A stretch of 64,000 bases of DNA from Pseudosphingobacterium sp. (GTDB taxonomy: Bacteria; Bacteroidota; Bacteroidia; Sphingobacteriales; Sphingobacteriaceae). Shown piece by piece: positions 6,083-33,660 of this stretch. The stretch spans positions 2,325 through 66,324 of the forward strand of contig DATMSZ010000085.1 of the NCBI GenBank assembly GCA_035565175.1, read 5' to 3'. The translations under genes were made by a program, and so were the position numbers. The first letter of the stretch is position 1; every line of letters starts with the position of its first letter. The notes beneath the pieces are model-generated. The model was not told the origin of the DNA. It searched no databases and was given only the letters and a program-made list of their open reading frames with translations.

Positions 6083-6673
6083 ATGAACGAAAAAAGAGAT
6101 CGTGCCTTGTTGCAGCGTTTTATTTTGGGCGATGATTCGGCTTTTGCGGAATTATACAACAGTTGTTGGGAAAAGCTTTTTTTATATGCTGTTCGTGTTT
6201 TGGGCGACGATAATGACGCTGAAGATGTGGTGCAGGATGCCTTTGTTTCTTTCTGGAAGTATCGGAAATGTGCAGAAAATATTGAGCATATAGATCATTA
6301 TTTATTGGCGATTGTGCGGAACAATGCGGTGAAAGTTATTCGACGTAACATTGAAACACGAAATTACCTAAGCTCTATTAAATCTTTTTTTGATGAACTG
6401 GCAAGTGCTTCGGATGAAGCTTTCATGGCAAAGGGACTGGAGCAGTTTTTTGATGCGGAAATTGAGAAGCTCCCAAATAAAATGCGAGAAATCTTCATTC
6501 TAAGCCGTAAAGAACAACTTAGCCATAAGCAAATTGCAGAAAGACTCGGTATCTCCAATGAGACGGTAAAAAAGCAAATCTACAATTCACTCAAAACACT
6601 CCGCGCTAAGCTTAATAAAGACCAATATAGCGCGCTGTTCCTCTTGCTAATTATTAAGTTCTATTGCTCGTAA
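6083..6673 (+). CDS. ECF-type RNA polymerase sigma-70 factor (PUL-A)
   Basis: Region 2 (DAEDVVQDAFVSFW) and region 4 HTH (LSHKQIAERLGISNETVKKQIYNSLKTLR). A FecR gene follows. Confidence 0.85.
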   Translation: MNEKRDRALLQRFILGDDSAFAELYNSCWEKLFLYAVRVLGDDNDAEDVVQDAFVSFWKYRKCAENIEHIDHYLLAIVRNNAVKVIRRNIETRNYLSSIKSFFDELASASDEAFMAKGLEQFFDAEIEKLPNKMREIFILSRKEQLSHKQIAERLGISNETVKKQIYNSLKTLRAKLNKDQYSALFLLLIIKFYCS

Positions 6674-6816
6674 TAAAATTTCTTTTTGATTGATTTTGCA
6701 TGTCCTCTCGCAAAAAAATGAAATTTGGGCAAGCGCTAAATTTTTTTTCATTTCATCTACCACTTTCTTCTTTTTTGCTACTCTTCTAAGAAAGACCATT
6801 ATAAAACTAAAAACAG

Positions 6817-7974
6817 ATGACCGAAGAGGAAATCAAATTATTGTTAGAACGTTATGCTAGTGATTTATGCACACCCGATGAAAAAGAGTGGGTGGAGGCA
6901 TGGTTGCGCCACGAAGCAACGCAGTCAGACTGGTCGTGGAGGAATAAAAGTCACCTACAGAAGGTAAAGCAACGTATCGCAACGAAAATTGAGCAAGAGG
7001 TGCCTATTAGCATTCGAAAGCGCGCTACGTTCAATTATTGGCTAGCGGGAATAGCTGCAACCTTTTTGTTGTTGGTAATGAGTGTTGTCTTTTTGCAACG
7101 AAACCGTCATGAACAACTTAATGCTCAAAATATAATTGCATTGCCGGAACAGATAGGCGGACCAAAGCTGACCATGGCCGACGGAACGGTCATTGATTTG
7201 GCGGACTTGAAAGCGGGAACAACGAATAGGCAAGGGCAGGCATCGATAAAAAAACTGGAAGGGAATAGCTTGATCTACGCCTATCAAAATAATATGGAGA
7301 CTGAGCCTATTGAAAAGCAATTTAATACATTACGTATACCAGCCGGCACCTCTTATCAATTGGCGCTGCCCGATGGGAGCAAGGTCTGGCTCAACGCTTG
7401 TTCGGAGCTTTCTTTTCCGACGGTTTTTGATAAGGAAAGTCGGAAGGTGTCGTTAAAAGGTGAAGCCTATTTTGAGGTGGCTCGACAAAGCAAGCAGCCA
7501 TTTATTGTAGAGGCAAATGGGAGCCAGATTTCGGTCATCGGCACGGCATTTAATGTTTCGGCCTATCGGGATGAAGAAAAGGTGATCACTACCTTAACGG
7601 AAGGAGCAGTAGCTGTTTCGTTGAACAATCATGGCCTTATTTTAAAGCCTAATGAACAGGCAACAGCAGACCTCACAAACCGCCGTATTGGAAAAGCGCA
7701 GGTAGATCCGGAAGTTTTTTTAGCTTGGAAAAGCGACTACTTTGTGTTTGACGATTTAGATATTAAATCGATTATGCATCAAATTTCACGTTGGTACAAC
7801 ATAGAAGTGGTCTTTCAAGGAAATATTCCTACTAAGAAATTTGGAGGTACTTTTTCGCGGTCAAAGTCTATTGAAGAGTTATTGGCTTATTTAGAGCAAT
7901 TAGGAAATATACGGTTTAAGTTGAACGATATTTCATTTATACAAAAGGAAAGGAGGATTATTGTTATGCCTTAA
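6817..7974 (+). CDS. FecR-family anti-sigma factor (PUL-A)
   Basis: One central transmembrane helix (YWLAGIAATFLLLVMSVVFL). FecR periplasmic motifs are present (LPDGSKVWLNACSELSFP, GEAYFEV, VIGTAFNVSAY). Confidence 0.85.
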   Translation: MTEEEIKLLLERYASDLCTPDEKEWVEAWLRHEATQSDWSWRNKSHLQKVKQRIATKIEQEVPISIRKRATFNYWLAGIAATFLLLVMSVVFLQRNRHEQLNAQNIIALPEQIGGPKLTMADGTVIDLADLKAGTTNRQGQASIKKLEGNSLIYAYQNNMETEPIEKQFNTLRIPAGTSYQLALPDGSKVWLNACSELSFPTVFDKESRKVSLKGEAYFEVARQSKQPFIVEANGSQISVIGTAFNVSAYRDEEKVITTLTEGAVAVSLNNHGLILKPNEQATADLTNRRIGKAQVDPEVFLAWKSDYFVFDDLDIKSIMHQISRWYNIEVVFQGNIPTKKFGGTFSRSKSIEELLAYLEQLGNIRFKLNDISFIQKERRIIVMP

Positions 7975-8001
7975 TATGTATCATGCAAGAAGGTTATAAA
8001 A

Positions 8002-8035
8002 AACCAGAAGTGTTTGCTCCACTTCCGGTTTATTT
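8002..8035 (+). terminator. Hairpin plus T-rich tail downstream of the anti-sigma gene
   Basis: AACCAGAAGTG (8002-8012) pairs with CACTTCCGGTT (8020-8030) with one A.C mismatch. The loop is 7 nt. An A-run precedes it and TATTT follows. Confidence 0.55.
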
Positions 8036-8085
8036 AGGTAACCAATTTATTGTAAACCACAATTAATTAATTAAAACCTATACAA

Positions 8086-11000
8086 ATGTACAAAAAATAT
8101 ACTGCTAAGAAAGGTGGTACGGGTTTCCCTTGCCTTTTAAAACCTATACGGGTTATGAAATATGCTGTTTTCCTTACAATAATCTTTTACTTTCAAGCGG
8201 AGGCGGCTGTTCGCGCACAAAATGCTAGTTTGTCGGTAGAAAACCTCTCCTTGAAAAGTGTCTTTAGAATGCTGAAAAAGCAAACAGGCTATGATTTTCT
8301 GTATGCAACAGACGATCTATTAGACGCCCGACCAGTAACTATCCATGTGCACAATCAACCTTTAAAACAAATACTAGACAAATGTTTGGAGGGGCAACCA
8401 CTGATGTATAGAATCGATAAGGCCACCGTTCTTGTTGAAAGAAAAAAAATAACCCTGCAGCAGGACAGAGAGGTGCAGGACATAACTGTTAGGGGTAACG
8501 TGATCGATAAAAATGGTGAAGCGGTGCCGGGAGCATCTGTTTACGTGAAAGACCAGCAGACCAGCGGCACGAAGACGAACGCCGCAGGAGATTTCTCTTT
8601 ACGGGTTACTAAAAATGCAGTTTTAGTGATCAGCTCGATTGGCTTTATCAAAAAGGAAATCGTGGTAGGTGGTATAGATAATCAAAAGAAAATGACCATT
8701 CAGCTGGTGGATGAAGAGGCCTTGCTGGATGAAGTGGTGGTGGTGGGATATGGCACTGTAGCAAAAAAGGATTTGACAGGTGCAGTCTCTACTGTGCAGG
8801 GCGATTTAATCACTGCCCGCAAAACAACGCAAATATCACAGGCATTGCAAGGAGCAGTACCTGGTTTGATGGTGACGCGCAATAATAATGCGCCAGGCTC
8901 ATCGGCTACCATACGAGTACGTGGTATTACGACGATTACAGATGGAGGGTTGAATCCGCTGTATATTTTAGATGGCGTACCTATTGATGATATTAATACC
9001 GTAAATCCAAATGATATCGAGAACATTTCGGTGCTGAAAGATGCCGCCTCTGCCTCTATATACGGGTCTCGCGCAGCCTCCGGAGTTATTGTAATCACAA
9101 CGAAAAGGGCTAAAGAAGGACAGATTGGCCTCGACTATTCGGTAGAATATGGTTGGGAAAAAGCTACACAATATCCGGAGTATGTGGATGCCGTTCGCTA
9201 TATGCAACTAACAAATGAGTTGCGGTGGAATGATAACAGTAATAACGATAATGAATACCCCATTTATACCAAAGATTTGGTCGACAACTACCTTCAGTTA
9301 CATCAGGAAAATGCGGATGCGTACCCCATTACCGATTGGCGTGGGTTGATGTTACACGATTATGCACCGAGACAAAGCCATGTGATCGGTATTTATGGCG
9401 CTAATAAATTTGTGAAGACGCGTGCATCCATTGTATATGATAAGAATAACGCGTTTTATGATGAAAGAAGCTACGATCGGATTACTTCGCGAATAAATAA
9501 TGATTTCACAATTGGAAAATACTTAAACGCGAGCGTTGATCTGAGTTACAGACGTACGATTACCAAGAATGCAGTTTTTGATGGTGGCCCGATAACCGAG
9601 AACAACCGCGCAACTACGCCCATGTACAAAATGGGCATTATGCCACCTATTTACGCAGCGTTATGGTCTGACGGCCGGATAGGGGCTGGAAAGGATGGGG
9701 CCAATATTTATGCCTTGATGAAAGAAGGGGGCTTTGAACATTATTGGTATAATCAAGTGGGTGGGAAAGTCAGTTTAGACTTTACACCGCTCGAAGGCTT
9801 GAAGTTATCTGGCGTGTTTTCTCCTTTCCTGAATTTCGACAAGGGAAAAGTATTTAACCGAAAAGTCCCTTATACCACGTTTAATGAGCCCGAATCTATT
9901 GCGGGCTATATTGAACAGGCTACAGAAACCAAACTGCAAGAGAGTAGAAATGATAATCATCGCTATACCGTGCAGTTTTTAGCCAACTATAATAAACAGT
10001 TTGGCGATCATAGCCTGAATGTACTTGCCGGCTATGAGTATTTTTACGCCTTTAATGAGGGATTGGGAGCGTCGAGAGGGCAGTATCTGTTAACAAATTA
10101 TCCTTATCTGGATATTGGCCCGCTGGATTATCGTAATAACAGCGGTGACGCTTATGAGAATGCCTACCGTTCGTGGTTTGGCCGCATTATGTATAATTAC
10201 CAGGATAAATACCTCTTGCAAGCAAATATCCGTTATGATGGTTCTTCCCGTTTTGCTCCTGCGCATCGCTGGGGAGCTTTTCCTTCCGTGTCGGCAGGAT
10301 GGGTATTGTCTAACGAAGGTTTTTTAAAGGATCAATGGGAGCCGCTATCCTTTCTGAAGTTAAGAGCGTCTTACGGTACGTTGGGTAATGAACGTATCGG
10401 AAACTATCCTTATCAAGCGATTCTGTCTTTTGAGAATAAGTCGCTTTTTTACCAGGGTAACACCATTGTCGCTGGTCAGTCGGCCGCGCAATGGCAGTAT
10501 GCCATTCGGGATATTTCTTGGGAAACAACTTCTTCTTTCGATATAGGGCTCGACGTCAATTTCTTTGATAATCGGTTGACTTTTGTGGGCGACTACTACA
10601 AGAAAACTACCAAGGATATGTTGCTTAAGCTGGAAATTCCAGACTATGTAGGGTTCGATAATCCTGATCAGAATACGGGAAAGATGTTCACCAAAGGTTG
10701 GGAAGCACAGATAGGTTGGAGCGATCGTATAGGGGAAGTTCGTTACGGTGCTTCTTTTAATGTTTCCGATTTTATCTCCAGAATGGGCGATCTGGGTGGA
10801 ACGGAGTTCATAGAAGATCAGATAAAAATAGAAGGGAGTGAATTTAATGAGTGGTATGGCTACCTGTCGGACGGACTGTACCAAACGCAAGCGGAGGTGG
10901 ACAATTCGGCGAAGCTGAATGTGAATGTTCGCCCGGGCGATGTTCGCTACAAAGATATCAGTGGGCCGGATGGTGTTCCCGATGGTAAGATTTCACAGGA

Positions 11001-11517
11001 ATACGACCGGGTTTTATTAGGCGGCTCGTTGCCTCGTTACATCTTCGGTGGTAATTTTAATGTAGGTTATAAAAGTTGGGATTTGTCGTTCGTCATTCAA
11101 GGTGTGGGAAAGCAGAATAGTCGATTGAGTGAGGATATTGTACGACCACTACGCGAGAATTATGGGAACTTCCCTGCCATTCTGGATGGGAATACCTGGA
11201 GCAACTACCAAAGCCCGGAGCAGAATTTGAATGCCAAATATCCTCGTTATTCTAATACCTCTGCTGTTAACAACTATGCACTGTCTGATTATTGGTTGAT
11301 TAACGGCGGATACTTTCGTTTAAAAAATGTAACAGTTGGTTATTCTTTTCCTCAGCGTTGGATGGATAAAGTGCATTTAAAAGGACTTCGCCTCTATGGT
11401 ACGGTGAACGACTTATTCTCAATCCATAACTTCCCCAAAGGGTGGGACCCTGAAATGAATACTTTGGGCTATCCCATTACCAAAACTTTTTTAATCGGTG
11501 CTTCAGTGAAATTTTAA
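8086..11517 (+). CDS. SusC/RagA-type TonB-dependent outer-membrane transporter with an N-terminal STN signalling domain (PUL-A)
   Basis: STN-like segment (LKSVFRMLKKQTGYDFLY...). Carboxypeptidase-regulatory-like domain (VRGNVIDKNGEAVPGASVYV). Plug signature (EVVVVGYGTVAKKDLTGAV). Terminal F. The true start could be the ATG at 8155 (MKYAVFL...). Confidence 0.9.
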   Translation: MYKKYTAKKGGTGFPCLLKPIRVMKYAVFLTIIFYFQAEAAVRAQNASLSVENLSLKSVFRMLKKQTGYDFLYATDDLLDARPVTIHVHNQPLKQILDKCLEGQPLMYRIDKATVLVERKKITLQQDREVQDITVRGNVIDKNGEAVPGASVYVKDQQTSGTKTNAAGDFSLRVTKNAVLVISSIGFIKKEIVVGGIDNQKKMTIQLVDEEALLDEVVVVGYGTVAKKDLTGAVSTVQGDLITARKTTQISQALQGAVPGLMVTRNNNAPGSSATIRVRGITTITDGGLNPLYILDGVPIDDINTVNPNDIENISVLKDAASASIYGSRAASGVIVITTKRAKEGQIGLDYSVEYGWEKATQYPEYVDAVRYMQLTNELRWNDNSNNDNEYPIYTKDLVDNYLQLHQENADAYPITDWRGLMLHDYAPRQSHVIGIYGANKFVKTRASIVYDKNNAFYDERSYDRITSRINNDFTIGKYLNASVDLSYRRTITKNAVFDGGPITENNRATTPMYKMGIMPPIYAALWSDGRIGAGKDGANIYALMKEGGFEHYWYNQVGGKVSLDFTPLEGLKLSGVFSPFLNFDKGKVFNRKVPYTTFNEPESIAGYIEQATETKLQESRNDNHRYTVQFLANYNKQFGDHSLNVLAGYEYFYAFNEGLGASRGQYLLTNYPYLDIGPLDYRNNSGDAYENAYRSWFGRIMYNYQDKYLLQANIRYDGSSRFAPAHRWGAFPSVSAGWVLSNEGFLKDQWEPLSFLKLRASYGTLGNERIGNYPYQAILSFENKSLFYQGNTIVAGQSAAQWQYAIRDISWETTSSFDIGLDVNFFDNRLTFVGDYYKKTTKDMLLKLEIPDYVGFDNPDQNTGKMFTKGWEAQIGWSDRIGEVRYGASFNVSDFISRMGDLGGTEFIEDQIKIEGSEFNEWYGYLSDGLYQTQAEVDNSAKLNVNVRPGDVRYKDISGPDGVPDGKISQEYDRVLLGGSLPRYIFGGNFNVGYKSWDLSFVIQGVGKQNSRLSEDIVRPLRENYGNFPAILDGNTWSNYQSPEQNLNAKYPRYSNTSAVNNYALSDYWLINGGYFRLKNVTVGYSFPQRWMDKVHLKGLRLYGTVNDLFSIHNFPKGWDPEMNTLGYPITKTFLIGASVKF

Positions 11518-11527
11518 TAAAACGGAT

Positions 11528-13225
11528 ATGAAATTTTCAGTAAAAATATACATAAGTGTTGGAATAGCTCTTCTCTTCATGGGCTCCTGCGGAAAGCTTG
11601 ATTTAAATCCTTTATCACAGGGATCAAGCGAAACTTGGAATTCCACGCCGGAAGAAATAGAGATGTCTTTAAATGGCTTGTACAAAGTCGACTTTTGGAT
11701 GACGGATCAGGATGATTGGACCGATGATTGGATTTACCGGGATGTGCTATCGGAAGTGGCCAATGCAACCCTCAATGGACAAACCAAAGTAGTAGGTGAT
11801 TGGTGGAAGAATACTTATAAATGTATTGCGCGAGCCAACAGTGTTATAGCGAGCGTAGATCGTGCGGCAAATTTATTATCGCAGGAACAGCGCGATCGGT
11901 ATGTTGCTGAAGCACGTTTTGTGCGTGCGTCCCAGTATGCGCGTCTTCTCTCGCATTATCGCAACATTGTATATACCGAAACCATGTTGGATATTGAGGA
12001 AGCTTTAGCCGCCGACCAAGCGGATCCAGCAATGGTGCTGCAGAAGATCTATGAAGATTATGACTTCGCAGCGAATAACTTGAAGATTAGTTATAGCACT
12101 TCAGAAGTTAAACGGGCCACGGCTGGTGCCGCTTTAGCAATGAAAGCGCGTATTGCACTCCATATGGGGGATTGGGAAACGGCCAAGAATGCAGCAAAGG
12201 CGTGCATGGACTTGGATGTTTATCAATTACATGCAGATTTTGGTAGTCTTTTCTTGTCAAAAACCAAGAACTCCACCGAAATGGTATTCGGATTTCCGCG
12301 TTCCATTGCGCTCAATATTGCGAAGGGCGATTGCCAGAATTACGTGCCTAGGAATGCAGGTGGCTGGGGTGCAAAAGCGCCGTCATGGGATCTTTTTTGT
12401 GCTTTTTTATGCACAGATGGTTTACCGATCGACGAATCGCCCTTGTTTAACCCGCAGGTACCATTCGTAAATCGTGATCCACGTTGTGCTAAAACCATCG
12501 TTGAGTTTCAAACACCGCACTTAGGATACATCTATCAACCACATCCTGATTCTTTAAAGGTGAAGAGTTTAGCAAGCAATGCGCTGGTTGAAAACAGGGA
12601 TACACGCGCGGTAGCACAATATGCATCCTTTAATGGGTTGCTTTGGAAAAAGGGAATTGACGAAGATTGGTTGAAAAATTCCTGGCAAGTGGAACCTGAT
12701 CAAATCATCATTCGGTACGCCGATGTATTGCTCATGTATGCGGAGGCGAAAATTGAATTGGGTGAGTTGGATGAATCGGTAGCGGAGGCAATCAATCAAG
12801 TGCGGGCAAGGGCTTACGGAGTGGAAGCGGGAAACACGCAAGCCTATCCAGCGGTGCGGTTGGAAACACAAGAAGCGATGCGAAAATTAGTACGTACTGA
12901 GCGTAGAATGGAGTTTGCGTTGGAAGGTATTCGCTATATGGATATTATCCGTTGGAAATTAGCAGAAAAGGTACTGAATAAGGTGAATTATGGCATGTTG
13001 GATGTGGATGATCTACGAGCAAAAGTAGTGAAACCGGGATTATGGTTTTTCCCTCAGGTTCCTGTTATTGATGAAGATGGGGCGGCCGATTTTTCTGCGA
13101 TGTATAACGCCGGCCTAGTCAAACAAATTGCCGTTCGTAAATTCGATCCATCAAGGCAATATCTGTGGCCCATACCTACCAATGAAGTATTAACCAGTGG
13201 TTTGAAACAAAACCCCAATTATTAA
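11528..13225 (+). CDS. SusD/RagB-family glycan-binding lipoprotein (PUL-A)
   Basis: Lipobox (LLFMGSC). It lies 10 bp after susC. C-terminal RagB/SusD motifs are present (ERRMEFALEGIRYMDIIRW, QYLWPIP). Confidence 0.9.
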   Translation: MKFSVKIYISVGIALLFMGSCGKLDLNPLSQGSSETWNSTPEEIEMSLNGLYKVDFWMTDQDDWTDDWIYRDVLSEVANATLNGQTKVVGDWWKNTYKCIARANSVIASVDRAANLLSQEQRDRYVAEARFVRASQYARLLSHYRNIVYTETMLDIEEALAADQADPAMVLQKIYEDYDFAANNLKISYSTSEVKRATAGAALAMKARIALHMGDWETAKNAAKACMDLDVYQLHADFGSLFLSKTKNSTEMVFGFPRSIALNIAKGDCQNYVPRNAGGWGAKAPSWDLFCAFLCTDGLPIDESPLFNPQVPFVNRDPRCAKTIVEFQTPHLGYIYQPHPDSLKVKSLASNALVENRDTRAVAQYASFNGLLWKKGIDEDWLKNSWQVEPDQIIIRYADVLLMYAEAKIELGELDESVAEAINQVRARAYGVEAGNTQAYPAVRLETQEAMRKLVRTERRMEFALEGIRYMDIIRWKLAEKVLNKVNYGMLDVDDLRAKVVKPGLWFFPQVPVIDEDGAADFSAMYNAGLVKQIAVRKFDPSRQYLWPIPTNEVLTSGLKQNPNY

Positions 13226-13240
13226 TCGATATTCTTAATT

Positions 13241-15712
13241 ATGGACATGCTACGAAAGAAAAAAATAGGATGGTTGTTTCTTTATTCCCTAATAAGTGCT
13301 TGCGCAGTACAGGAGCAGAAAGAACCGATACAAATGAGTGGTGTTTATCCTCATCTGGCCATGTACAATGAGGAGGGGGAATGTGGCACAGGAGCCGTAG
13401 TGCCTTGGCAAGACCGATTATGGGTAATAACCTATGGACCGCACTTACCCTTTGGTTCCTCTGATAAGTTATACCAAATTAATGATGGGTTGGAAAGAAC
13501 GATTCATCCCGAAAGCATTGGTGGAACACCTGCCAATCGATTGATTCACAGGGAGAGTCAACAGTTGTTTGTTGGGCCTTATGCCATTGATTCAATGCGT
13601 CATGTTCGGGTGATACCTTATCAAAATATGCCGGGACGCTTAACAGGCAATGCACGGCATCTGACCGATCCTGCCCATAAGATATACTACGGGACAATGG
13701 AGGAAGGTTTCTATGAAGTGGATGTAAAAACGCTAAAGCCATACTGGCTCTTTGCTGACGAAAACCTTAAATCTGCACAGCGAAATAAGGTGCCTACGGC
13801 TAATTTAATTGGTTGGCATGGCAAAGGCCTTTATTCCGGTCAGGGGGTATTGGTATACAGTAATAATGGTGAAAGAGGTGACAGTGCTTTGCATCATTTC
13901 GATGCGCCCTCAGGTGGTCTACACGAATGGGATGGTAAACATTGGAAGATGATCCGTAGAAATCAATTTACGGAAATAACCGGTCCGGGCGGGATTTATG
14001 GGAATTCACATCCGGAGACAGATGCGATTTGGACCATTGGCTGGGATCATAAATCCGTGTTGCTAGGTGTTCGCGGCGAAGGGAAATGGGCTTTTTACCG
14101 TTTGCCAAAGGCTAGCCACAGCTATGATGGTGCACATGGGTGGAATACCGAATGGCCGAGAATTCGAGATATCGGAACTGAGGGGAAACCAGATTACCTG
14201 ATGACGATGCATGGACTGTTTTGGCGTTTTCCGGGCGATTTAACACGTACTCATGCCCTTGGAATTCGTCCGCGATCAGCATATCTCAAGGTGATTGGTG
14301 ATTTCGCACGGTGGCACAATCGGCTTGTTTTTGGCTGTGACGATTCGGCCGAACGCGAATTTCTGAATAAGCGAAAAGCAAAGGGCAACATTGAGGGGCC
14401 GGGACAATCAAATTCCAATTTATGGTTTACTTCTTTGGAGCAGCCGGATGAGCTAGGGCCCGCAACGGCCGATGGTGCAGTTTGGCAAGAGGAAAAAATA
14501 GCGGCCGGACAGCTTTCTGACCCCTTTTTATTTGCGGGTTGGCCTATTCGTTCTTGCTGGTTATCAAATGAAGGAACGACCAGTACTACCTTTGTGCTTG
14601 AAGTAGATCTATCGGGAGATGGGCAATGGAAAAACCTCAAAGAGATAAAGGTATTACCTGGAGAAGCTATAAACTTGTCATTGAAAAGGGAAGAGAAAGG
14701 GGAATGGATTCGCGTTAGAACAGTTGAAGCAACAACCGCCAGTGTTCATTTTACCTATGCCCAAGAAGAGAAACGGGGCGGTAATGCGGATAATATCTTT
14801 CGGGGCCTGGCCGAAGCATCAACTTTCGAAGGTGGCCTGCTTTATGGCTTGGGAGACAATAGGAAAGCGTTGGGTTTAGTGGCGCGACGTTATGATGAAG
14901 GTGTTCTCAAAACAACACCAGGCTATTATGAGTTGAATGAGAAAATGGAGCTGTTGCCTAAAAGTGGAGATACCACGGCCCAATTTATGGAGAAGCGTTT
15001 CGCTATTCCAAAAGACGTGGTGAGCTTGGAAGCTTCCTCCGTATTGGTGATAGATGATAAGGGGCGTAGATGGCGGCTTCCTCTAGGGGATAGTGCGTTT
15101 ACCGAACTAACAAATAAATCGGCATTGCGCATCTGTCGGGAAGTGGCTACAGAACGTGATCTATTGAATTGCCATGGTACTTTTTACGAATTGCCTGCAG
15201 AAAATGCAGATGGCTTTGCTAAAATGAGACCTATTGCGTCGCACCCTTTTAAGATTAACGATTATGCATCCTATCGCGGTATGTTGATCATGACGGGCAT
15301 TGATCCAGCGAAATTGAAAACGAATCAAAATGAACATATTATTGTTTCGGAAGACAGAAAAGCCGCTGTTTGGGCGGGCGTTATTGATGATTTGTGGAAA
15401 CTGGGCAGGCCGAGAGGAGAGGGCGGGCCCTGGAAGGGCAGTCAGGTAAGTAAAGGCATTGCTTCGGATCCTTACCTGATAGGTTTCTATGATAAAAGGA
15501 CATTGAAGTTATCGCATCAAGCCGAGGGTGAGGTAACCTTTACGATTGAGGTTGATCCGGGTGGCGATGGAAATTGGATGACTTATAAATCGGTTAAGGT
15601 TCGAAAGGAAGAAATCTTTAAATTTGAATTCCCATCGGCTTTTCAAGCACGGTGGATCCGTTTTAAAACAGATACCGATTGTGAAGCTACTGCTTGGTTA
15701 TCGTATACCTAA
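13241..15712 (+). CDS. Large lipoprotein of unknown family with two repeated C-terminal beta-sandwich-like modules
   Basis: Lipobox (LISAC). The ORF is 823 aa, lies 15 bp after susD, and contains no motif I can assign. An internal repeat links aa ~410-506 and ~727-823. Confidence 0.8.
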   Translation: MDMLRKKKIGWLFLYSLISACAVQEQKEPIQMSGVYPHLAMYNEEGECGTGAVVPWQDRLWVITYGPHLPFGSSDKLYQINDGLERTIHPESIGGTPANRLIHRESQQLFVGPYAIDSMRHVRVIPYQNMPGRLTGNARHLTDPAHKIYYGTMEEGFYEVDVKTLKPYWLFADENLKSAQRNKVPTANLIGWHGKGLYSGQGVLVYSNNGERGDSALHHFDAPSGGLHEWDGKHWKMIRRNQFTEITGPGGIYGNSHPETDAIWTIGWDHKSVLLGVRGEGKWAFYRLPKASHSYDGAHGWNTEWPRIRDIGTEGKPDYLMTMHGLFWRFPGDLTRTHALGIRPRSAYLKVIGDFARWHNRLVFGCDDSAEREFLNKRKAKGNIEGPGQSNSNLWFTSLEQPDELGPATADGAVWQEEKIAAGQLSDPFLFAGWPIRSCWLSNEGTTSTTFVLEVDLSGDGQWKNLKEIKVLPGEAINLSLKREEKGEWIRVRTVEATTASVHFTYAQEEKRGGNADNIFRGLAEASTFEGGLLYGLGDNRKALGLVARRYDEGVLKTTPGYYELNEKMELLPKSGDTTAQFMEKRFAIPKDVVSLEASSVLVIDDKGRRWRLPLGDSAFTELTNKSALRICREVATERDLLNCHGTFYELPAENADGFAKMRPIASHPFKINDYASYRGMLIMTGIDPAKLKTNQNEHIIVSEDRKAAVWAGVIDDLWKLGRPRGEGGPWKGSQVSKGIASDPYLIGFYDKRTLKLSHQAEGEVTFTIEVDPGGDGNWMTYKSVKVRKEEIFKFEFPSAFQARWIRFKTDTDCEATAWLSYT

Positions 15713-15744
15713 TTTATGTATGAAAAGTACTTGATCCAGATTTT

Positions 15745-16836
15745 ATGAAGAAGAAGTTCCGTCAGGTTGCCAGCTTATTTATAGCCTGTTTTTGGCTTGC
15801 TTCTGTGGCAGCACAGGGGAAAGGGGAGACGTATACGGTATCAGAGAGTGGGGAAGCCTATGAACTGGTGCTGGCATATGATCGGCAGCAAGAGCCAGCT
15901 TATTTTGTTCGGAATATTTTTACACCGGTTTGCCTAGACAGTGTCTGCAAACCGGTACGTATCAAATTGTTCTGGGATTTATTGGGAAATTACCTGAAAT
16001 ATGAAGTGCCAGCGGACGAGCCGCTAACCAAATTGGACCATAAGGAGTTTACACCTGAAGATCATGCAAAGCTCCAAGGGATCCTTTCCAATGAAAATTC
16101 CTTATTAAAGGATTTCAGATTGGAAGACCTGGTCGATTCCACCAGCCAGCACTTATCGGACTCGGTGGATGCCGTTACCGGAGCAACAAAGAATACGATT
16201 AAAAATGAGGTGATTGAAGGGGCTTTATATACCTGTTATACCTTATGGCATCTGGCGCATGGGCCAGTGGTAAATGAAATACAAGAAATCTTTAAGACCA
16301 AGTTGGATACCCACATGCTTCATCGCTTTTTGCGGAGTATGAACTTCCACTATGTCTATTTTGCATTAGAGGAAGTCATGAATGCGGAAGGGGTAATCCA
16401 AGATGGCTTTCTACCTGACGTACTAGCTGTTTTGGCAAGTGATAATGTGTTTGCAGCTCGTCATGTTTGGCAACGGATCAATTTACAATATTTTGCGAAG
16501 CGCGAAGAGCAGGAAACCCTTTGGCGTATTTTTGTGCATTCACCCTATACGCTGCAAGTTGCCTTTTTAAAACGAATGAAACAGTTGGATTTGGATCCCG
16601 GGCTCGTTCCACGCATAACAGATTATCTGCCAAAACTAAACAACGCATTATTCAAGCAAACACTAGGTGTACTGGCGACGCAAGACGTGCTTCCTCGGAC
16701 CTCGCAGGAAAAGTTGCTTGCTTACCTGACTTCAGCAGATAAGGAAAAGTCCGAGGCAGTATATGACGCGATGAAAGGACACTCCAAATTAAGTGAAGCT
16801 TTTCATAAACAGTTAAGAATTTATAGTAAACCTTAA
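15745..16836 (+). CDS. Secreted protein with an FMN_bind-like segment (DAVTGAT flavinylation-type motif) and a helical-repeat C-terminus
   Basis: Sec signal peptide (…LASVAAQG). The motif D142-A-V-T-G-A-T148 is encoded at nt 16168-16188. An HKEFTPED stretch upstream resembles the ETPG region of FMN_bind domains. The C-terminal ~190 aa look alpha-helical and HEAT-like. Confidence 0.5.
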   Translation: MKKKFRQVASLFIACFWLASVAAQGKGETYTVSESGEAYELVLAYDRQQEPAYFVRNIFTPVCLDSVCKPVRIKLFWDLLGNYLKYEVPADEPLTKLDHKEFTPEDHAKLQGILSNENSLLKDFRLEDLVDSTSQHLSDSVDAVTGATKNTIKNEVIEGALYTCYTLWHLAHGPVVNEIQEIFKTKLDTHMLHRFLRSMNFHYVYFALEEVMNAEGVIQDGFLPDVLAVLASDNVFAARHVWQRINLQYFAKREEQETLWRIFVHSPYTLQVAFLKRMKQLDLDPGLVPRITDYLPKLNNALFKQTLGVLATQDVLPRTSQEKLLAYLTSADKEKSEAVYDAMKGHSKLSEAFHKQLRIYSKP

Positions 16837-16844
16837 AATAAATT

Positions 16845-18641
16845 ATGATGAACCCTATTTTTAAAACCTACCTACTAATCCTGATCTTTTTTTTCTGTTT
16901 ATTGCGAGTGGCCGCGCAAGAACAGGTTTTGGTGGAGGCCGAGTCTTTTCGTCAAAAGGGGGGATGGGTGGTTGATCAACAGTCCTTTCCGGTATTACAT
17001 TCTTCCTATTTAATGGCACATGGCATGGGACGACCCGTAGCGGATGCCAAAACCCAGGTGAAATTTTCAAAGAAAGGGAGCTACAAGGTTTGGCTTAGAA
17101 CAAAAGATTGGGCACCTTACCCGGTAGGACCCGGTAAGTTTAAGCTGCATGTGGATGGCCAAGCCTTAGCGCCCACTTTTGGAGAAAGCGGCGATGGAGC
17201 CTGGAAGTGGTACAATGGCGGGGAGATAAGAGTCGAAAAGGATTCGGTTGAGCTGGTGCTGCAAGACTTAACAGGCTTTAATGGCCGCATAGATGCTATC
17301 TTGTTCAGCCGTGGAAGCAATACCGAACCTCCAAATGAGCTAGCGGCTTTGGATGGTCTACGTAATAAACTATTGGGCCTACGTGCAGGGTTAAAAGAAA
17401 TGGGCGATTTCGACCTTGTGGTGGTGGGTGGTGGTGTAGCGGGAACGTGTGCGGCGATATCTGCTGCCCGTTTGGGCTTGAAAGTGGCACTCATTCAGGA
17501 TAGGCCATTGCTTGGCGGGAACAATAGCTCGGAAGTACGTGTGCATCTGATGGGCGATCTGGATAAGAGTTACTACCCAAAGTTGGGACGGATTGTTCGC
17601 GAATTGGATAATGGTGACCCAGGTAATGGTAATCCGAATGCTAAAGAATATGGCGATGCGCGTAAGTTTGCCATTGTAAAGGCGGAAAAGAATCTTTCGC
17701 TGTTTGTTAATACCCATGTGTACCAAGCGGAGACAGCGAATAACACCATTAAGGCGGTTATTGGCCGAGATATTGAGACAAATCAGGAAAGAAGATTCAC
17801 AGCTAAATATTTCGCGGATTGCACAGGGGATGGTACCCTCGGTTTTTTGGCTGGTGCAGATTTTCGTATGGGACGGGAAAGTAAACAGGAAACAGGCGAG
17901 TCCCTCGCCGCCGATAAAGCAGACGATTTTACCTTGGGCACCTCCAATTTATGGGCATCTTTACCTGTTGATAGTGTAACGACATTTCCCGAAACACCTT
18001 GGGCACTCACTTTTTCGGAGGAGTACCATATTGATGAAGAACAGTCAGATTGGCAATGGGAAACAGGTTTCGGCAATTTTAATACAATTACCGAAGCCGA
18101 GCAGATAAGAGACCATAATCTTCGGGCGGTATATGGCAACTGGTCATATCTAAAAAATAATAAACCCGAAAAATATGGTAAAAGGGCGTTGGCATGGGTC
18201 GCTTATATTGGTGGAAAACGGGAGTCGAGGCGCTTATTGGGTGATCATATCCTGACCCAGATGGATGTGCAGGAAGGTAAAGTTTATCCGGATGCAACTG
18301 TGACGGCTACATGGACCATCGATCTTCATTTCCCAGACAAGAAAAATAGTCTCTATTTTCCTGACGAAGAATTTTTTGCTGGCACCAAACATATTCGCGT
18401 AGCACCATATACCATCCCTTATAGATGCTTATATTCACGAAACGTGAGTAACCTGTTTATGGCAGGTAGAGATATCAGTACCACGCATGTAGCCTTTGGA
18501 AGTACACGTGTGATGCGTACCTGCGGGATGATGGGCGAGGTGGTGGGGATGGCCGCTTTTGTGGCGAAGCAGCATCAAACTACACCCCGTGGTGTGTATG
18601 AAAAACATTTGCCGGAATTTATGGGCATGATTAAGGATTAA
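16845..18641 (+). CDS. Exported FAD-dependent oxidoreductase (FAD_oxidored/PF12831-like) with an N-terminal beta-sandwich (CBM-like) domain
   Basis: Sec signal peptide (…LLRVAAQE). Dinucleotide-binding motif DLVVVGGGVAGTCAAISAARLGLKVALIQD (nt ~17412-17501). The N-terminal ~130 aa (EAESFRQKGGW...RIDAILFS) precede the Rossmann fold. Confidence 0.7.
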   Translation: MMNPIFKTYLLILIFFFCLLRVAAQEQVLVEAESFRQKGGWVVDQQSFPVLHSSYLMAHGMGRPVADAKTQVKFSKKGSYKVWLRTKDWAPYPVGPGKFKLHVDGQALAPTFGESGDGAWKWYNGGEIRVEKDSVELVLQDLTGFNGRIDAILFSRGSNTEPPNELAALDGLRNKLLGLRAGLKEMGDFDLVVVGGGVAGTCAAISAARLGLKVALIQDRPLLGGNNSSEVRVHLMGDLDKSYYPKLGRIVRELDNGDPGNGNPNAKEYGDARKFAIVKAEKNLSLFVNTHVYQAETANNTIKAVIGRDIETNQERRFTAKYFADCTGDGTLGFLAGADFRMGRESKQETGESLAADKADDFTLGTSNLWASLPVDSVTTFPETPWALTFSEEYHIDEEQSDWQWETGFGNFNTITEAEQIRDHNLRAVYGNWSYLKNNKPEKYGKRALAWVAYIGGKRESRRLLGDHILTQMDVQEGKVYPDATVTATWTIDLHFPDKKNSLYFPDEEFFAGTKHIRVAPYTIPYRCLYSRNVSNLFMAGRDISTTHVAFGSTRVMRTCGMMGEVVGMAAFVAKQHQTTPRGVYEKHLPEFMGMIKD

Positions 18642-18660
18642 AATATTCCTTAATCATGCC
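18624..18660. terminator. Perfect 14-bp inverted repeat spanning two convergent stop codons (bidirectional terminator)
   Basis: GGCATGATTAAGGA (18624-18637) pairs with TCCTTAATCATGCC (18647-18660), with a 9-nt loop. It covers the stop at 18639-18641 (+) and the stop at 18650-18652 (-). Confidence 0.7.
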
Positions 18661-21600
18661 TTTCACCATCAGCCATTTGTGCTATTTCAGCTGAAGATAG
18701 GCTTTCGGCAAAGACCATTACTTTCTTTGCTAATCCCTGGTAGATCCGCTCGCCAGGGAATTCTTCGTTTTGTCCTAACTGCCATCTATTGTTATTGGCT
18801 AGGCTTACATCGGGTGCTACCGCTAAGCGCTCTTTTAATACCCCATCTATGTACAGGTATAGATTTTTGCCATCGCACACACCTGCCACATGGTGCCACT
18901 TACCATACCAATCAGCAGGGAGCTCGGTTGTACATTCTCCTCTTCCCCAGCCGCCTGCAAAAAAGTTCAGCTTCTTGCCATCAACTAGTTGTAACACATG
19001 CTGGTCGCCTTTTGAAAAGATATCTACCAATCCGGCTGCTGGTGCTTGGGCTTTTATCCATAATGTGATGGTCATGCGGGTATCAATAGCGTCTACAATG
19101 CGGTTTTCTTTCCAACTAACATAACGCTGACTATCTAATGTGAATAGCTGGTCTTTAGGTGAAAAGGCTAAACCTTTTACACTTGCTTCGTTAGCAAAGG
19201 GTGTTTTGTCTATTAATAAGCCATTCGACCCTACCTCCAAATTCGGCCCTCCAAACAGCAATGCTTCTAGCGCTTGGTCATAAACCAGGTATTTGCCCTG
19301 CTGATCTGCTATCGTAATTGTTTTTTGTCCTTTTTCATCTGTCTGAAATACCCATACCCGTTGTTGTTCTTCACCGGGTTGAAGGGTTAAGGTATCTATT
19401 CCGATCTCTTGACCACTTAACTGAATCGGTAATTGTATCTTCTTTGGAGCACCATCTAAATTTTTCACTTTGTAGTGTAATCGTTGATCAGCGCCGAGCC
19501 TTACCAAAGGTGCATAGCTTAGCTGACTAACTTCAAGGCGTGTTGCCCGCTGGTGAACAGATGGGGTAACGTGTATCATTAAATGATGATCGTCTAACGT
19601 TAGTTGATGCTCGCCAAAAGGGTATACACGAACAAACAGGGTATCTTGGCGTGTTTCGCCTTCTTCGAGCAGCACATTTTCATAAATAAAGGGTTCACCA
19701 TCTAGCTTGACTTCCAGTTGTTTTGTGCTTCTGGCTCCTTTATTATGCAGTTGCACCATAACGGGGATAGGTTCGTCTGGGTTTACTTTGTTCTTTAAAA
19801 CTTCCACTTTATTTAGGCGCACGGAAGGCTTTCCCGCATCGGCAGTTATTACATCGGCGAGCTGATTCCAGGTGCTATTTGCCTTTTCACCCAGTATGAA
19901 TTTTAACAGCGCTCCACTTATCAATGTTTGGTGGTCTACCTCAAATTTAGAATAAGGTTTTCCATTTAGCTGCACTGCCTGCAGGTAATAACCAGACTCT
20001 TTGATTGCGTCTTTCTGTATGGATATGATCTTTTTGTTGGGCAAATGAATGGTTACCTCGTCAAACAAAGGGGTGCCAAGCGTATAGATCGGTTTGCCGG
20101 GAGCTATTGGATAAAAGCCTAGTGCATTGAATATATACCAGCTAGATAGGGAGCCAAGGTCATCATTTCCCGGTAATCCACCCGGAGTGTCTGAAAAGCG
20201 GTCGGTTAGAATGCGATGCACCCAGTATTGGGTAAGATCGGGCCGCCGGGCATAAAGGAATAAGTAGGGCACATGAAAAGCAGGTTCATTATCGAATACC
20301 AGTTGTTGCCCGGACAAAAAATGGTTTAAGCGACTGGAAAATAGCGAATCGTCGCCCATTAGGTTGATAAGATCTCGAGGGTATTGGGGAACAAAATAAC
20401 TATAGATGTAAGTGTCTCCTTCTTTATAACCAAAAGTACCGGGTTGATTTTTCCATCCCGCCTCATCTTTTGGTATAAAGAAGAGTTCGTCTTGTTTGAA
20501 CAACTGGCGATAAGCTCTACTGTATCTTTTCGTGATAGTTGCCACAGCAGTGTCCTGCATCACTTTTTCTGCAAAGTTGGCAAGGGCCCAGTCATCGTAA
20601 GCATATTCCATTGTTCGGGTCACCGATTCGCCCATGGTTGCGGGTATGAAACCTTTTTCGTGATACACGGCAAGATCCGGTTGCTTAAAGGGCGCTTGGT
20701 AGATACTTCCTTTTAACGCTTCATAGATTTCTTTTGCATTTGCTATCATCGGATTTTTTAGATAGGAATCTACCAAGATGGGCACGGCATGGTTTCCTGT
20801 CATCGACTCGGTGGGAAGAAAACCACTTTGTTTATATACATCTAACATAGAGCCAACCATTTCTGCCTGTCTTTGCGGCCAAAGCAATTGGATTAAAGGG
20901 TGTAAGGTTCGAAAAGTATCCCAAGGAGAAAAGCTACCGTATTGATTGTTCCTATTTGTTTGATGTGTTAACCCGTCTGCACCCTTATAGAAGCCGTCGA
21001 CATCCGAGATCACCCATGGCAATAAACAGGCGTGATACAAGGCTGTATAAAAACTACGTTTGTGATGTACGTTCGCATCGGTTATGGAGATGGTTTGCAT
21101 AAGTGCCGACCATTCCTTGTGGGTCTGCTGGAACACATAAGAAAAAGGAACTTCTTTTGCTTTTCTCGTTTCCTGTAGCAATGCCATGATATTTTTCAAA
21201 GCTGCAGCATAGCCTAGAGGGGAGGCACTTACTAAAACAGTTAAAACAGTCGGAGAAGTCCGGTTTCCGTTGAAATGGAGTGTATTGTTGCCATCTGTTG
21301 GTTCTTGCTTGGTAACAGCCAAACTAAATTGAAAAGCACTGCCATGTTGTGTGCCGTAAGCAGTATTGCCCGATTTAAATTGGAGTGCACCTACATCTGC
21401 TATCCATAGCCTGGGCGCAACGCCGGCAGGAAAGGTAATCTTTATGATGCCTACACGAGCGGTGGCAGTACATTCTACCAAGGTCTTATCATCTTGGAAA
21501 GTTATACGGTAATAGCCTGGCTTGGCTTGTTCGTCGGAATGCCGAAAGGAGCGAAGCCTATTACCCCCTTTACTAATGGGCATCAGTTGTATATTACCTT

Positions 21601-21904
21601 TTGACCCCTCTGGAAAGCCGCTTTTATGCCCTATACACGAAAAATATTGGATGGAGCTGTCTGCATAATGGTATCCTGATTGGCCACCACCTGTTTCGGG
21701 ACTTATTTGTATATAACCCCAGGGCGCCGTGGCGCCCGGGTAGGTGCCTCCTTCCTTACCCCATTTTGTATATGCCTTCGCATCGTCTGTACCAATAAAC
21801 GGATCGACATAGTTGATTTCTTCCTGATCCGGTAAGATAGAAGCAAATGCGGTATATCGATAGCCAATTATTAAAAGTAGTAGAAAGAGTGATTTTTTGT
21901 ACAT
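18650..21904 (-). CDS. GH92 alpha-mannosidase with a C-terminal extension (two Ig/CARDB-like modules plus a LamG/concanavalin-like domain)
   Basis: GH92 N-terminal signature (VDPFIGTDD...GGTYPGATAPWGYIQISPET) and the EYAYDDWALANFA motif. The C-terminal segment KWHHVAGVCDGKNLYLYIDGVLK is typical of LamG. Confidence 0.85.
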   Translation of the reverse strand: MYKKSLFLLLLIIGYRYTAFASILPDQEEINYVDPFIGTDDAKAYTKWGKEGGTYPGATAPWGYIQISPETGGGQSGYHYADSSIQYFSCIGHKSGFPEGSKGNIQLMPISKGGNRLRSFRHSDEQAKPGYYRITFQDDKTLVECTATARVGIIKITFPAGVAPRLWIADVGALQFKSGNTAYGTQHGSAFQFSLAVTKQEPTDGNNTLHFNGNRTSPTVLTVLVSASPLGYAAALKNIMALLQETRKAKEVPFSYVFQQTHKEWSALMQTISITDANVHHKRSFYTALYHACLLPWVISDVDGFYKGADGLTHQTNRNNQYGSFSPWDTFRTLHPLIQLLWPQRQAEMVGSMLDVYKQSGFLPTESMTGNHAVPILVDSYLKNPMIANAKEIYEALKGSIYQAPFKQPDLAVYHEKGFIPATMGESVTRTMEYAYDDWALANFAEKVMQDTAVATITKRYSRAYRQLFKQDELFFIPKDEAGWKNQPGTFGYKEGDTYIYSYFVPQYPRDLINLMGDDSLFSSRLNHFLSGQQLVFDNEPAFHVPYLFLYARRPDLTQYWVHRILTDRFSDTPGGLPGNDDLGSLSSWYIFNALGFYPIAPGKPIYTLGTPLFDEVTIHLPNKKIISIQKDAIKESGYYLQAVQLNGKPYSKFEVDHQTLISGALLKFILGEKANSTWNQLADVITADAGKPSVRLNKVEVLKNKVNPDEPIPVMVQLHNKGARSTKQLEVKLDGEPFIYENVLLEEGETRQDTLFVRVYPFGEHQLTLDDHHLMIHVTPSVHQRATRLEVSQLSYAPLVRLGADQRLHYKVKNLDGAPKKIQLPIQLSGQEIGIDTLTLQPGEEQQRVWVFQTDEKGQKTITIADQQGKYLVYDQALEALLFGGPNLEVGSNGLLIDKTPFANEASVKGLAFSPKDQLFTLDSQRYVSWKENRIVDAIDTRMTITLWIKAQAPAAGLVDIFSKGDQHVLQLVDGKKLNFFAGGWGRGECTTELPADWYGKWHHVAGVCDGKNLYLYIDGVLKERLAVAPDVSLANNNRWQLGQNEEFPGERIYQGLAKKVMVFAESLSSAEIAQMADGERHD

Positions 21905-21993: not shown

Positions 21994-22089
21994 TAAATAA
22001 CAGAAAAATTAGGTTATAATTGCTAAAAGTAGTATAGCCAAGAGCAACATCAGATATCAACCTTTCAAAAGCTTTTGAGATTAAATGTT

Positions 22090-22620
22090 ATGCAAGAATT
22101 ATTGCGGAAGATAAAGGAAGATGACGAATCGGCATTTAATGAATTGTATTTTCGTTATTTTAATCCACTTATTCATTTTTCCTATTCCTTCATCAATGAT
22201 AGGGGGATAGCGGAAGAAATTGTAAATGACGTTTTTCTTAAATTATGGTTAAAAAGGAAAAATTTACCTGATATCTCAAACGAAAAGGTCTTTCTTTATA
22301 CAGCTGCTCGCAACGCCTCTTTAAACCATCTGCGTACGCTTTCTACCAAGCGCGTTAAAAATATGGAAAGCTTTTTAACATCTAACCATCACATCTTTGT
22401 CGAATTTAGTCCGGAACAATATTACATCAGTGCCGAAACAAAAAACAGGATAGTTAAAGCCGTCAATAGCTTGCCTCCAAAATGCCAGATTATTTATAAA
22501 ATGGTAAAGGAAGACGGATTATCTATTGGAGAAGCAGCGGAGATATTGTTGCTTTCTTATAAAACTGTATTTGCCCAATTACAGATTGCGTTAAAGAAAA
22601 TTGCCGGAGTGATAGAATAA
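22090..22620 (+). CDS. ECF-type RNA polymerase sigma-70 factor (PUL-B)
   Basis: Region 2 (AEEIVNDVFLKLW) and region 4 HTH (LSIGEAAEILLLSYKTVFAQLQIALKKI). The track start at 22075 is a TTG, so I prefer the ATG at 22090. Confidence 0.85.
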   Translation: MQELLRKIKEDDESAFNELYFRYFNPLIHFSYSFINDRGIAEEIVNDVFLKLWLKRKNLPDISNEKVFLYTAARNASLNHLRTLSTKRVKNMESFLTSNHHIFVEFSPEQYYISAETKNRIVKAVNSLPPKCQIIYKMVKEDGLSIGEAAEILLLSYKTVFAQLQIALKKIAGVIE

Positions 22621-22683
22621 AAAAATAAATGTCTGCAACGTTTTAAGAACTTCTATAAGAAAACGTGTCATATACGTAACAAC

Positions 22684-23736: not shown

Positions 23737-23778
23737 CTGTAAATTATGAAAAAATGAAGACAGGACCAGAAAAATAAA

Positions 23779-23829
23779 TTAAGGGCGAGCGGCAACTCAC
23801 CCTTAAAGCGATAAGGAGCTAAGCTCCTT
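23779..23829 (+). terminator. Two tandem hairpins downstream of the anti-sigma gene
   Basis: TTAAGGGCGAG (23779-23789) pairs with CTCACCCTTAA (23796-23806) with one mismatch. AAGGAGC (23813-23819) pairs with GCTCCTT (23823-23829), followed by TCTTC. Confidence 0.5.
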
Positions 23830-23924
23830 TCTTCTAGTAATTATTAACCACACAAAGATAAAAAACCTTTTGATGTATTTCACCTTAAGGAGTAAGCTGT
23901 TCTTTGTGAAATCGACTTAAATGA

Positions 23925-27287: not shown

Positions 27288-27293
27288 TTTATT

Positions 27294-28814: not shown

Positions 28815-28840
28815 TGTTGGTAGGCAATGATTAACATATT

Positions 28841-33650: not shown

Positions 33651-33660
33651 ATACAAAAAG

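Follow-up and report, generated by a model that had tools for sequence, protein, structure and literature searches.

The 64,000-nt stretch of Pseudosphingobacterium sp. DNA analysed here (the window) contains, at 6083-18641, a SusC/SusD-type polysaccharide utilisation locus (PUL) under the control of an extracytoplasmic function (ECF) sigma factor and its anti-sigma factor. Our preferred reading, which we hold with about as much belief as reserve, is that the cargo of this locus is a periplasmic two-flavin redox module with an accessory protein, in which p598, a flavin adenine dinucleotide (FAD) enzyme, would dehydrogenate a sugar hydroxyl and p363, a candidate carrier of covalently bound flavin mononucleotide (FMN), would relay the electrons onward; the accessory is the exported protein p823. 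A redox module with an FMN relay in a glycan-import operon had already been proposed in a reading of the DNA made without database searches (the sequence-only reading), and the comparative genomics reported here, an in silico analysis, supports that proposal.

The locus consists of seven open reading frames (ORFs) on one strand, and the ORF map reproduced exactly the gene coordinates and the intergenic gaps of 15, 32 and 8 bp (SusD/p823, p823/p363 and p363/p598, respectively) given in the sequence-only reading, whose sigma, FecR, STN-SusC and SusD identities were likewise all matched by Pfam. Adjacent same-strand susC and susD genes define a SusC/SusD-type PUL, and the combination of an ECF sigma factor, FecR and a transporter with an STN domain defines a PUL with trans-envelope signalling. 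As in canonical ECF-sigma/anti-sigma PULs, sigma, FecR, STN-SusC and SusD stand in the standard order and are followed by same-strand exported cargo. In contrast to the canonical loci, the cargo here comprises two flavin-linked proteins and an unclassified propeller protein, and neither Pfam nor NCBIfam placed p823, p363 or p598 in any glycoside hydrolase (GH), polysaccharide lyase (PL) or carbohydrate esterase (CE) family, as the sequence-only reading had anticipated in calling the cargo non-CAZyme.

One pointer to a flavin relay is found in p363, a 363-aa protein with a Sec-type signal peptide and, as noted from the letters alone, a DAVTGAT motif at residues 142-148. Related loci were collected by scanning one genome per species, which returned 203 loci, the best 80 of which were analysed, and gene-neighbour families were obtained by clustering all ORFs from these 80 loci. 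An alignment of 28 p363 sequences shows no change at G146 or T148 and a conservation of at least 90% at D142 and A147; C63, C68, a TK-x-DH motif and a TLW motif are also invariant. The pattern D-x-x-[STA]-G-[AS]-[ST] is present in 81 of the 82 p363 members (DAKAGAT in 41, DAKTGAT in 13, DAVTGAT in 7, and others), always with the final G-A-T, so the conservation of the motif in orthologues that the sequence-only reading had made a test of its proposal is borne out. The same pattern occurs in no member of nine conserved neighbour families (p598, ApbE, c4, SSF, GH2, p823, SusC, SusD and LacI), which argues that its occurrence in p363 is no chance match. The final S/T of the ApbE motif is the flavinylated position (PMC8238504), and T148 is accordingly the predicted attachment site in p363. 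Being exported, with a conserved motif and an invariant acceptor, p363 has the features expected of an ApbE-flavinylated protein, and since p363 alone carries the pattern, it is the only plausible substrate of the flavin transferase encoded next to it in relatives. p598 and the other neighbours were rejected as ApbE substrates because none of them carries the motif.

The p363 family has been found in Bacteroidota only among the matches obtained, forms about 100 clusters at 90% identity, and its members are named only "hypothetical" or "HEAT repeat". Pfam gave no match to p363 and NCBIfam nothing usable, either for the whole protein or for the split domains. The AlphaFold2 (AF2) model, with a mean predicted local distance difference test score (pLDDT) of 88, comprises an N-terminal five-strand sheet with helices and a C-terminal HEAT/ARM solenoid; the motif loop lies just ahead of a helix and is modelled with low confidence (pLDDT <50 at residues 135-147). 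Foldseek with the full model returned armadillo-repeat structures only, the C-terminal repeats dominating the search, and a single-sequence search of the PDB gave only noise. A profile of the p363 family searched against 177,635 PDB sequences gave as its best match the flavinylated FMN-binding domain 8p2b (E 0.044, or 0.085 when only the N-domain was profiled), and this alignment sits on the motif, pairing DSVDAvTGAT of p363 with TDVDVHSGAT. With hhalign, the comparison with E. coli RsxG alone aligned no more than the motif and the helix after it (E 0.12), whereas an alignment of 13 RnfG/NqrC sequences from annotated records yielded 99 collinear columns ending on TGAT, matching p363 residues 15-126 to RsxG residues 77-177 (E 5.4e-4, probability 30%). 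These profile-profile results are only suggestive; p363 may be an FMN_bind domain that has diverged very far, or else an ApbE-substrate domain of a new kind. As a separate observation, the invariant C63 and C68 lie in a TPVC-x4-C-KPV hairpin of the N-domain and may be joined by a disulfide in the periplasm or take part in redox chemistry.

The second flavin-linked protein, p598, is a 598-aa protein with a Sec-type signal peptide, and the match to PF12831 (FAD_oxidored) covers profile positions 1-410 of 416, i.e., the full length of the family; the secreted FAD-Rossmann protein of the sequence-only reading is thereby confirmed by profile search. The GGGVAG dinucleotide-binding motif of p598 corresponds to a GGGxxG that is invariant across the family alignment, and the invariant polar residues further include GKRESRR, D493/H495, R527, R542 and H548. 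An additional N-terminal domain of about 160 aa has no Pfam assignment, and we take it to be a glycan-binding beta-sandwich. Orthologues are 70-92% identical to p598 and are named "FAD-dependent oxidoreductase" or "hypothetical" in all sources. Against the PDB, single-sequence and profile searches both aligned only a dinucleotide-binding segment of about 45-50 residues, the best match being flavocytochrome c3 fumarate reductase (E 1.2e-8, over about 50 residues only), and NCBIfam likewise recognised only the Rossmann segment. Among the Pfam matches of p598, PF00890 is confined to profile positions 1-36 of 414 and thus does not extend across the catalytic and capping domains, and the N- and C-terminal GMC_oxred domains of the GMC family are absent.

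A p598 orthologue directly follows p363 in 76 of 79 loci, and two of the remainder end at a contig edge. The gap between the two genes has a median of 1 bp, with many 4-bp overlaps, and reverse look-ups from four p598 orthologues found a motif-bearing p363 directly upstream in every case (4/4). p363 and p598 therefore form a near-obligate pair. Immediately downstream of p598, 52 of the 79 loci carry apbE (a 330-aa family with signal peptides; PF02424, E 2.8e-70), so that the genomic association with apbE that is typical of ApbE-flavinylated proteins is seen in the relatives, albeit not in the window. Of the new evidence for the flavin relay, this adjacency is the strongest. SusC is present in 77 of the 80 loci, which fall into two types. 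Type A loci, to which the window belongs, are sigma/FecR-regulated and carry p823, with SusC orthologues of 60-88% identity; type B loci are LacI-regulated and carry an 856-aa exported protein, an SSF symporter and GH2. Among the 17 loci with the window's layout, 13 read sigma-FecR-SusC-SusD-p823-p363-p598-ApbE (Chitinophaga-type). Other genes held by related loci encode GH88, GH76/88-like proteins, an SASA esterase and sulfatases, in addition to GH2 and the SSF symporter (Table 1 lists the features of the window's own locus).

Table 1. Features of the locus and of its downstream border, in window positions
Feature	Position	Strand	Basis
ECF-type sigma factor, first gene of the locus	6083..6673	+	Pfam Sigma70_r2, Sigma70_r4_2, Sigma70_ECF; position kept in type-A relatives
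FecR-type anti-sigma factor	6817..7974	+	Pfam FecR and FecR_C; synteny conserved
SusC-like TonB-dependent transporter with N-terminal STN signalling domain	8086..11517	+	Pfam STN, CarboxypepD_reg, Plug
SusD-like lipoprotein	11528..13225	+	Pfam SusD_RagB, SusD-like_3
p823, exported all-beta protein of unclassified family	13241..15712	+	Lipobox, AF2 model
p363, exported two-domain protein, proposed covalent-FMN electron carrier	15745..16836	+	Family alignment, AF2 model, synteny with p598
DAVTGAT loop of p363 (residues 142-148), T148 the predicted FMN attachment site	16168..16188	+	Conserved; matches the ApbE flavinylation motif
p598, exported PF12831 FAD enzyme	16845..18641	+	Pfam FAD_oxidored, E 4.5e-76, residues 190-587
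Hairpin across the two convergent stop codons (ends of p598 and GH92)	18623..18661		Fold energy, shuffles

The sequence-only reading had also asked whether the trio of cargo genes is syntenic beside susC/susD, and it is: all three genes occur together again, arranged in three different orders, in Olivibacter, Parapedobacter, Chitinophaga, Dyadobacter tibetensis, Negadavirga, Aquipluma and Mariniphaga. Parapedobacter has the order of the window. Aquipluma reads …SusD-p823-p598-like-p363-like-PF12831-CstA-GH88, with a p598-like protein of 40% identity and a p363-like protein that hhalign aligns at E 1.6e-49 and that keeps VDAVTGAT, and Mariniphaga reads SusD-p823-AAA-GH2-p598-like-GH76/88-like-p363-like-CstA. 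In Dyadobacter sp. CECT 9275, a PUL with p823 adjoins the flavin locus. The association of p823 with the flavin pair is thus recurrent and independent of gene order. A transporter of the CstA family flanks the trio in both Aquipluma and Mariniphaga (L082:17125-18576, L084:13052-14430). A further observation concerns 16 loci (the examples checked are from Dyadobacter) that have an upstream SusC/SusD pair whose sole cargo is a twin-arginine-exported xylose-isomerase-like TIM-barrel protein (e.g., L075:2784-3740, L041:2811-3782); this fold is used by keto-glycoside lyases.

Some genomes contain a diverged second pair, p363'-p598', in which p598' bears a twin-arginine signal (MKTQRRDFI…), as expected for a periplasmic enzyme that is exported with its cofactor loaded. 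In three loci, the second pair comes immediately after the first pair and apbE (L021:13884-16750, L059:13885-16863 and L062:13758-16673), and the FAD enzyme of these second pairs has a C-terminal extension in place of the N-terminal domain; the p363' copy of L059 does not match the motif pattern. Many type-B loci end with a PF12831 paralogue that lacks a signal peptide, measures 756-763 aa and likewise replaces the N-terminal domain by a long C-terminal extension (L049:14982-17258, L078:17359-19647, L098:20533-21803, L100:20473-21803 and L101:18917-21196); these paralogues stand beside GH2 or the SSF symporter and may be a cytoplasmic counterpart of p598.

The remaining cargo protein, p823, had been described as an 823-aa lipoprotein with no placeable motif. 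Its N-terminus, MDMLRKKKIGWLFLYSLISAC, does contain a lipobox (…LISAC), and no family could be assigned: Pfam and NCBIfam gave none, for the whole protein or split into domains, apart from a sub-threshold F5/8-type-C match at the C-terminus (Pfam), a search of the PDB with the single sequence gave only noise, and the family profile found 0 matches among PDB sequences at E<=10. The AF2 model is confident and all-beta (pLDDT 93.5, predicted template modelling score (pTM) 0.92). With approximate residue numbers, its strand pattern can be read as a beta-propeller at the N-terminus (30-400), followed by a beta-sandwich (410-510), another beta domain (525-715) and, at the C-terminus, a sandwich resembling F5/8-C (725-822). 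Foldseek with this model found generic propellers only, at TMq 0.12-0.26 and high root-mean-square deviation, including the BT4663 sensor, GH43, GH32, the endo-arabinanase EndoMA1, YncE and WD40 proteins, so p823 does not fall into a known GH/PL family. None of the three outcomes checked that would have spoken against the sequence-only reading was thus seen, namely a known GH/PL family for p823, a trio that is not co-conserved and a motif that is not conserved. The family is very large and unusually conserved, with more than 7500 matches, at 63-78% identity across classes (the best 120 listed are 63-95% identical and come from several Bacteroidota classes). It comprises 1578 clusters at 50% identity, and all its members are unnamed. 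The family alignment contains 42 invariant columns, many of them charged, which fits an enzyme better than a binding protein, and p823 is probably a glycan-active accessory of the module.

p823 occurs in 17 of the 79 p363 loci and is thus an optional partner that the module can lack. p823 and the 856-aa exported protein almost exclude each other; the latter is present in 53 of the 79 loci, is (alpha/alpha)6-like with weak GH88/GH127 similarity, and follows the flavin pair (e.g., L050:14128-16698, L098:11959-14538); this protein is a further candidate for an unclassified glycan enzyme. In Dyadobacter fermentans, a minimal SusC-SusD-p823 locus (L081:5205-12493) has p823 as its sole cargo, and the p823 family can therefore work without the flavin pair. 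Elsewhere, p823-like domains are joined to an N-terminal sulfatase (PF00884 and SGSH_C) in P0223, P0225 and P0254, and one is fused to a WD40 propeller in P0224; the sulfatase fusions point to sulfated glycans as targets for part of the p823 family.

From these observations, we propose the following mechanism. p363 would be exported by Sec, and ApbE, encoded elsewhere in the genome, would attach FMN to Thr148 in the periplasm. An oligosaccharide brought in by SusC/SusD would be the substrate of p598, which would dehydrogenate a sugar hydroxyl at its FAD; the resulting FADH2 would be re-oxidised in one-electron steps by the covalent FMN of p363, for which the HEAT/ARM domain may provide a docking surface, and p363 would hand the electrons to a respiratory-chain partner encoded outside the locus. 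p823 would be a swappable glycan-active partner, replaced by the 856-aa (alpha/alpha)6-like protein in most relatives. We prefer the oxidative direction because the module is the cargo of a PUL, because hosts such as Dyadobacter, Chitinophaga, Spirosoma and Olivibacter are mainly aerobic soil heterotrophs, and because periplasmic FAD glycoside dehydrogenases are known to feed the respiratory chain.

Several results weigh against this proposal. The window's p363 stays below the gathering threshold of FMN_bind (PF04205) in Pfam, as the whole protein or as the N-domain alone, so that the profile check suggested in the sequence-only reading came out negative; FMN_bind was matched by 3 of the 28 family members, at a best E of 0.034, and the probability of the 99-column hhalign match is low. 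No apbE lies within the 64 kb of the window, and no membrane redox partner was found in the window or in any related locus, nor any conserved CxxCH protein in the related loci; a locally encoded cytochrome c or membrane partner was rejected on these grounds. The p598 orthologues have Sec rather than twin-arginine signals and would therefore need their FAD loaded in the periplasm, and the literature searched contained no PF12831 member with a proven sugar substrate. The oxidative direction itself is argued from the PUL context and the aerobic hosts, and every characterised pair in which ApbE-attached FMN passes electrons to an FAD enzyme (fumarate, urocanate and methacrylate reductases) runs reductively (PMC8238504).

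This last precedent makes the reverse direction a substantial alternative, although we consider it unlikely. Electrons would then flow from the quinol pool through p363-FMN to FAD, and p598 would be a periplasmic reductase of a C=C or C=O bond in some imported compound derived from a glycan, for instance an unsaturated uronate, a keto-sugar or an aglycone; the recurrence near the module of GH88 and GH88/GH127-like proteins, which handle unsaturated uronates, is consistent with this. However, the hosts are mainly aerobic, no quinol-dehydrogenase partner is encoded nearby, and p598 belongs to PF12831 and not to PF00890, of which it matches only the first 36 profile residues. A weaker case can be made for p598 as a redox-neutral flavoenzyme, mutase- or lyase-like, that needs reduced FAD and receives occasional electrons from p363-FMN in a periplasm free of NAD(P)H. 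UDP-galactopyranose mutases are among the best Rossmann-segment PDB matches of p598, a relay makes sense for reductive activation without a nicotinamide cofactor, and the signal-less paralogues at the ends of type-B loci have no adjoining p363. Those PDB matches, however, span only about 45 residues of the dinucleotide fold and convey no functional information, and an obligate, tightly coupled partner with a dedicated apbE speaks for electron transfer that is stoichiometric and not just occasional; we regard a redox-neutral role as improbable.

Slightly less probable again is that p363 is no flavoprotein but a HEAT-repeat adaptor or chaperone for p598, with the loop in another role and ApbE serving another target. 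The sub-threshold FMN_bind result, the low confidence of the motif loop and the lack of an adjacent apbE in 27 of the 79 loci and in the window would all agree with such an adaptor. Against it, the loop fits the ApbE consensus with an invariant acceptor Thr, no other conserved protein of the loci carries the pattern while apbE directly follows the pair in 52 loci, and both the top PDB match and the RnfG/NqrC profile align exactly on the flavinylation site. We give the least credence to a target other than a polysaccharide, in which SusC/SusD would import a glycosylated aromatic, a peptide or a cofactor for oxidation or reduction by the flavoenzyme. The window's operon indeed has no recognised CAZyme, the module also occurs among very different neighbours (L001, L036), and its flanking by CstA-type transporters in Aquipluma and Mariniphaga could be read in the same way; yet in most related loci there are genes for GH2, GH88-like proteins, esterases or sulfatases together with a sugar-type SSF symporter, p823 and neighbour proteins of related loci show or hint at F5/8-type-C domains, and p823 is fused to glycan sulfatases elsewhere.

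The oxidative two-flavin reading can be compared with several known systems. FMN_bind domains and PF00890 FAD enzymes, fused or adjacent, are established (Meheust et al. 2021, PMC8238504). As in Listeria FrdA and Shewanella UrdA, where the two are fused or encoded by neighbouring genes, the module would combine an exported FMN carrier bearing an ApbE-type [S/T]GA[S/T] site with an exported FAD enzyme and use a membrane partner encoded elsewhere, and apbE is often in the cluster (PMC8238504). Unlike in those systems, the enzyme here belongs to PF12831 instead of PF00890, the proposed carrier forms a protein of its own, 363 aa long, which includes a HEAT/ARM domain and is not recognised by PF04205, and the context is SusC/SusD in mostly aerobic Bacteroidota. 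Like NqrC and RnfG (RsxG), p363 has a D-x-x-(s/t)-G-A-T loop, whose predicted acceptor Thr lines up with the one in RsxG, and the 99-column profile match suggests a remote link. Unlike them, p363 is not a subunit of a membrane ion pump, has no anchor beyond the signal peptide, and shows a similarity below Pfam/HMMER thresholds. DUF2271 and DUF3570, which were identified as ApbE substrates by gene-neighbourhood analysis of the kind applied here, resemble p363 as unannotated exported proteins with a conserved [S/T]GA[S/T] beside an otherwise orphan apbE (PMC8238504); they differ in fold, family and partner genes, being linked to iron, DsbD or thioredoxin-like functions and not to PULs. Periplasmic FAD glycoside 3-dehydrogenases, GMC glycoside 3-oxidases (PMC10646112 for the oxidases) and complexes of FAD dehydrogenases with cytochrome c are likenesses only in the sense of working alike: there, an exported flavoenzyme oxidises a glycoside for later cleavage and electrons leave through a one-electron carrier subunit, as may be the case here by analogy. 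In contrast to them, p598 has no GMC match in Pfam, and the proposed carrier would be covalent FMN rather than haem c or O2.

The principle of an ApbE-loaded FMN carrier beside an FAD enzyme is thus known. New are the families of carrier and enzyme, the presence of a HEAT domain, the setting in a PUL and the unclassified partner proteins. The literature searched contains no description of ApbE or flavinylation in PULs and no function for this PF12831 subfamily, consistent with the earlier view that the combination was undescribed for a PUL. In a wider and more doubtful form of the reading, p363 would be the founder of an unrecognised family of ApbE-flavinylated carriers, missed by FMN_bind surveys, that plugs PF12831 flavoenzymes of PULs into the respiratory chain; soil Bacteroidota would gain electrons directly from the oxidation of glycans in the periplasm, cleavage would be oxidation-assisted, and p823 and the (alpha/alpha)6 protein would be new glycan-active families acting on the oxidised products. 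PULs are understood as import-plus-hydrolysis machines. If the proposal is true, a conserved, ApbE-serviced flavin relay would add a redox step to periplasmic glycan processing and, in soil Bacteroidota, which are abundant, tie the electron-transport chain to carbohydrate foraging. ApbE would gain a new family of substrates, and part of PF12831, a large family in which no characterised sugar-active member was found, would be placed in a functional context for the first time. Two large unclassified families would be flagged as candidate carbohydrate-active enzymes, namely that of p823, which exceeds 1500 clusters at 50% identity, and that of the 856-aa (alpha/alpha)6-like protein.

Downstream, the gene string ends at a hairpin that the sequence-only reading had pointed out and that proved real. 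Its arms (18624-18640 and 18644-18660) are 17 nt long with 94% complementarity, and the predicted fold has a 15-bp stem at -23.3 kcal/mol (z = -6.5), a stability that 0 of 200 shuffles reached. We rejected it as a canonical intrinsic terminator, since it lacks a T tract and reaches into the final codons of the two convergent genes. The gene that converges on p598 and shares the hairpin encodes a GH92 protein with a C-terminal Laminin_G_3 domain (window 18650-21904, minus strand). A hint of mannan as the substrate, drawn earlier from this neighbour, did not hold up: GH92 adjoins p598 in 0 of the 80 related loci at the thresholds used, and the mannan link was rejected on this account. The convergent GH92 is a separate unit.

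Elsewhere in the window, two more loci with the layout sigma-FecR-SusC-SusD lie at 22075-35232 and 49239-62343, their sigma and FecR genes being recognised by ORF size and position only. One of them has GH115 and two GH43 as cargo, and the other a GH38-like protein, a GDSL esterase and a GH92. The segment 42680-48554 encodes a TonB-dependent receptor that has no SusD partner and, after it, a sulfatase (PF00884 and SGSH_C) and an S41 peptidase; this sulfatase has the same Pfam domains as the sulfatases that are fused to p823 homologues elsewhere.

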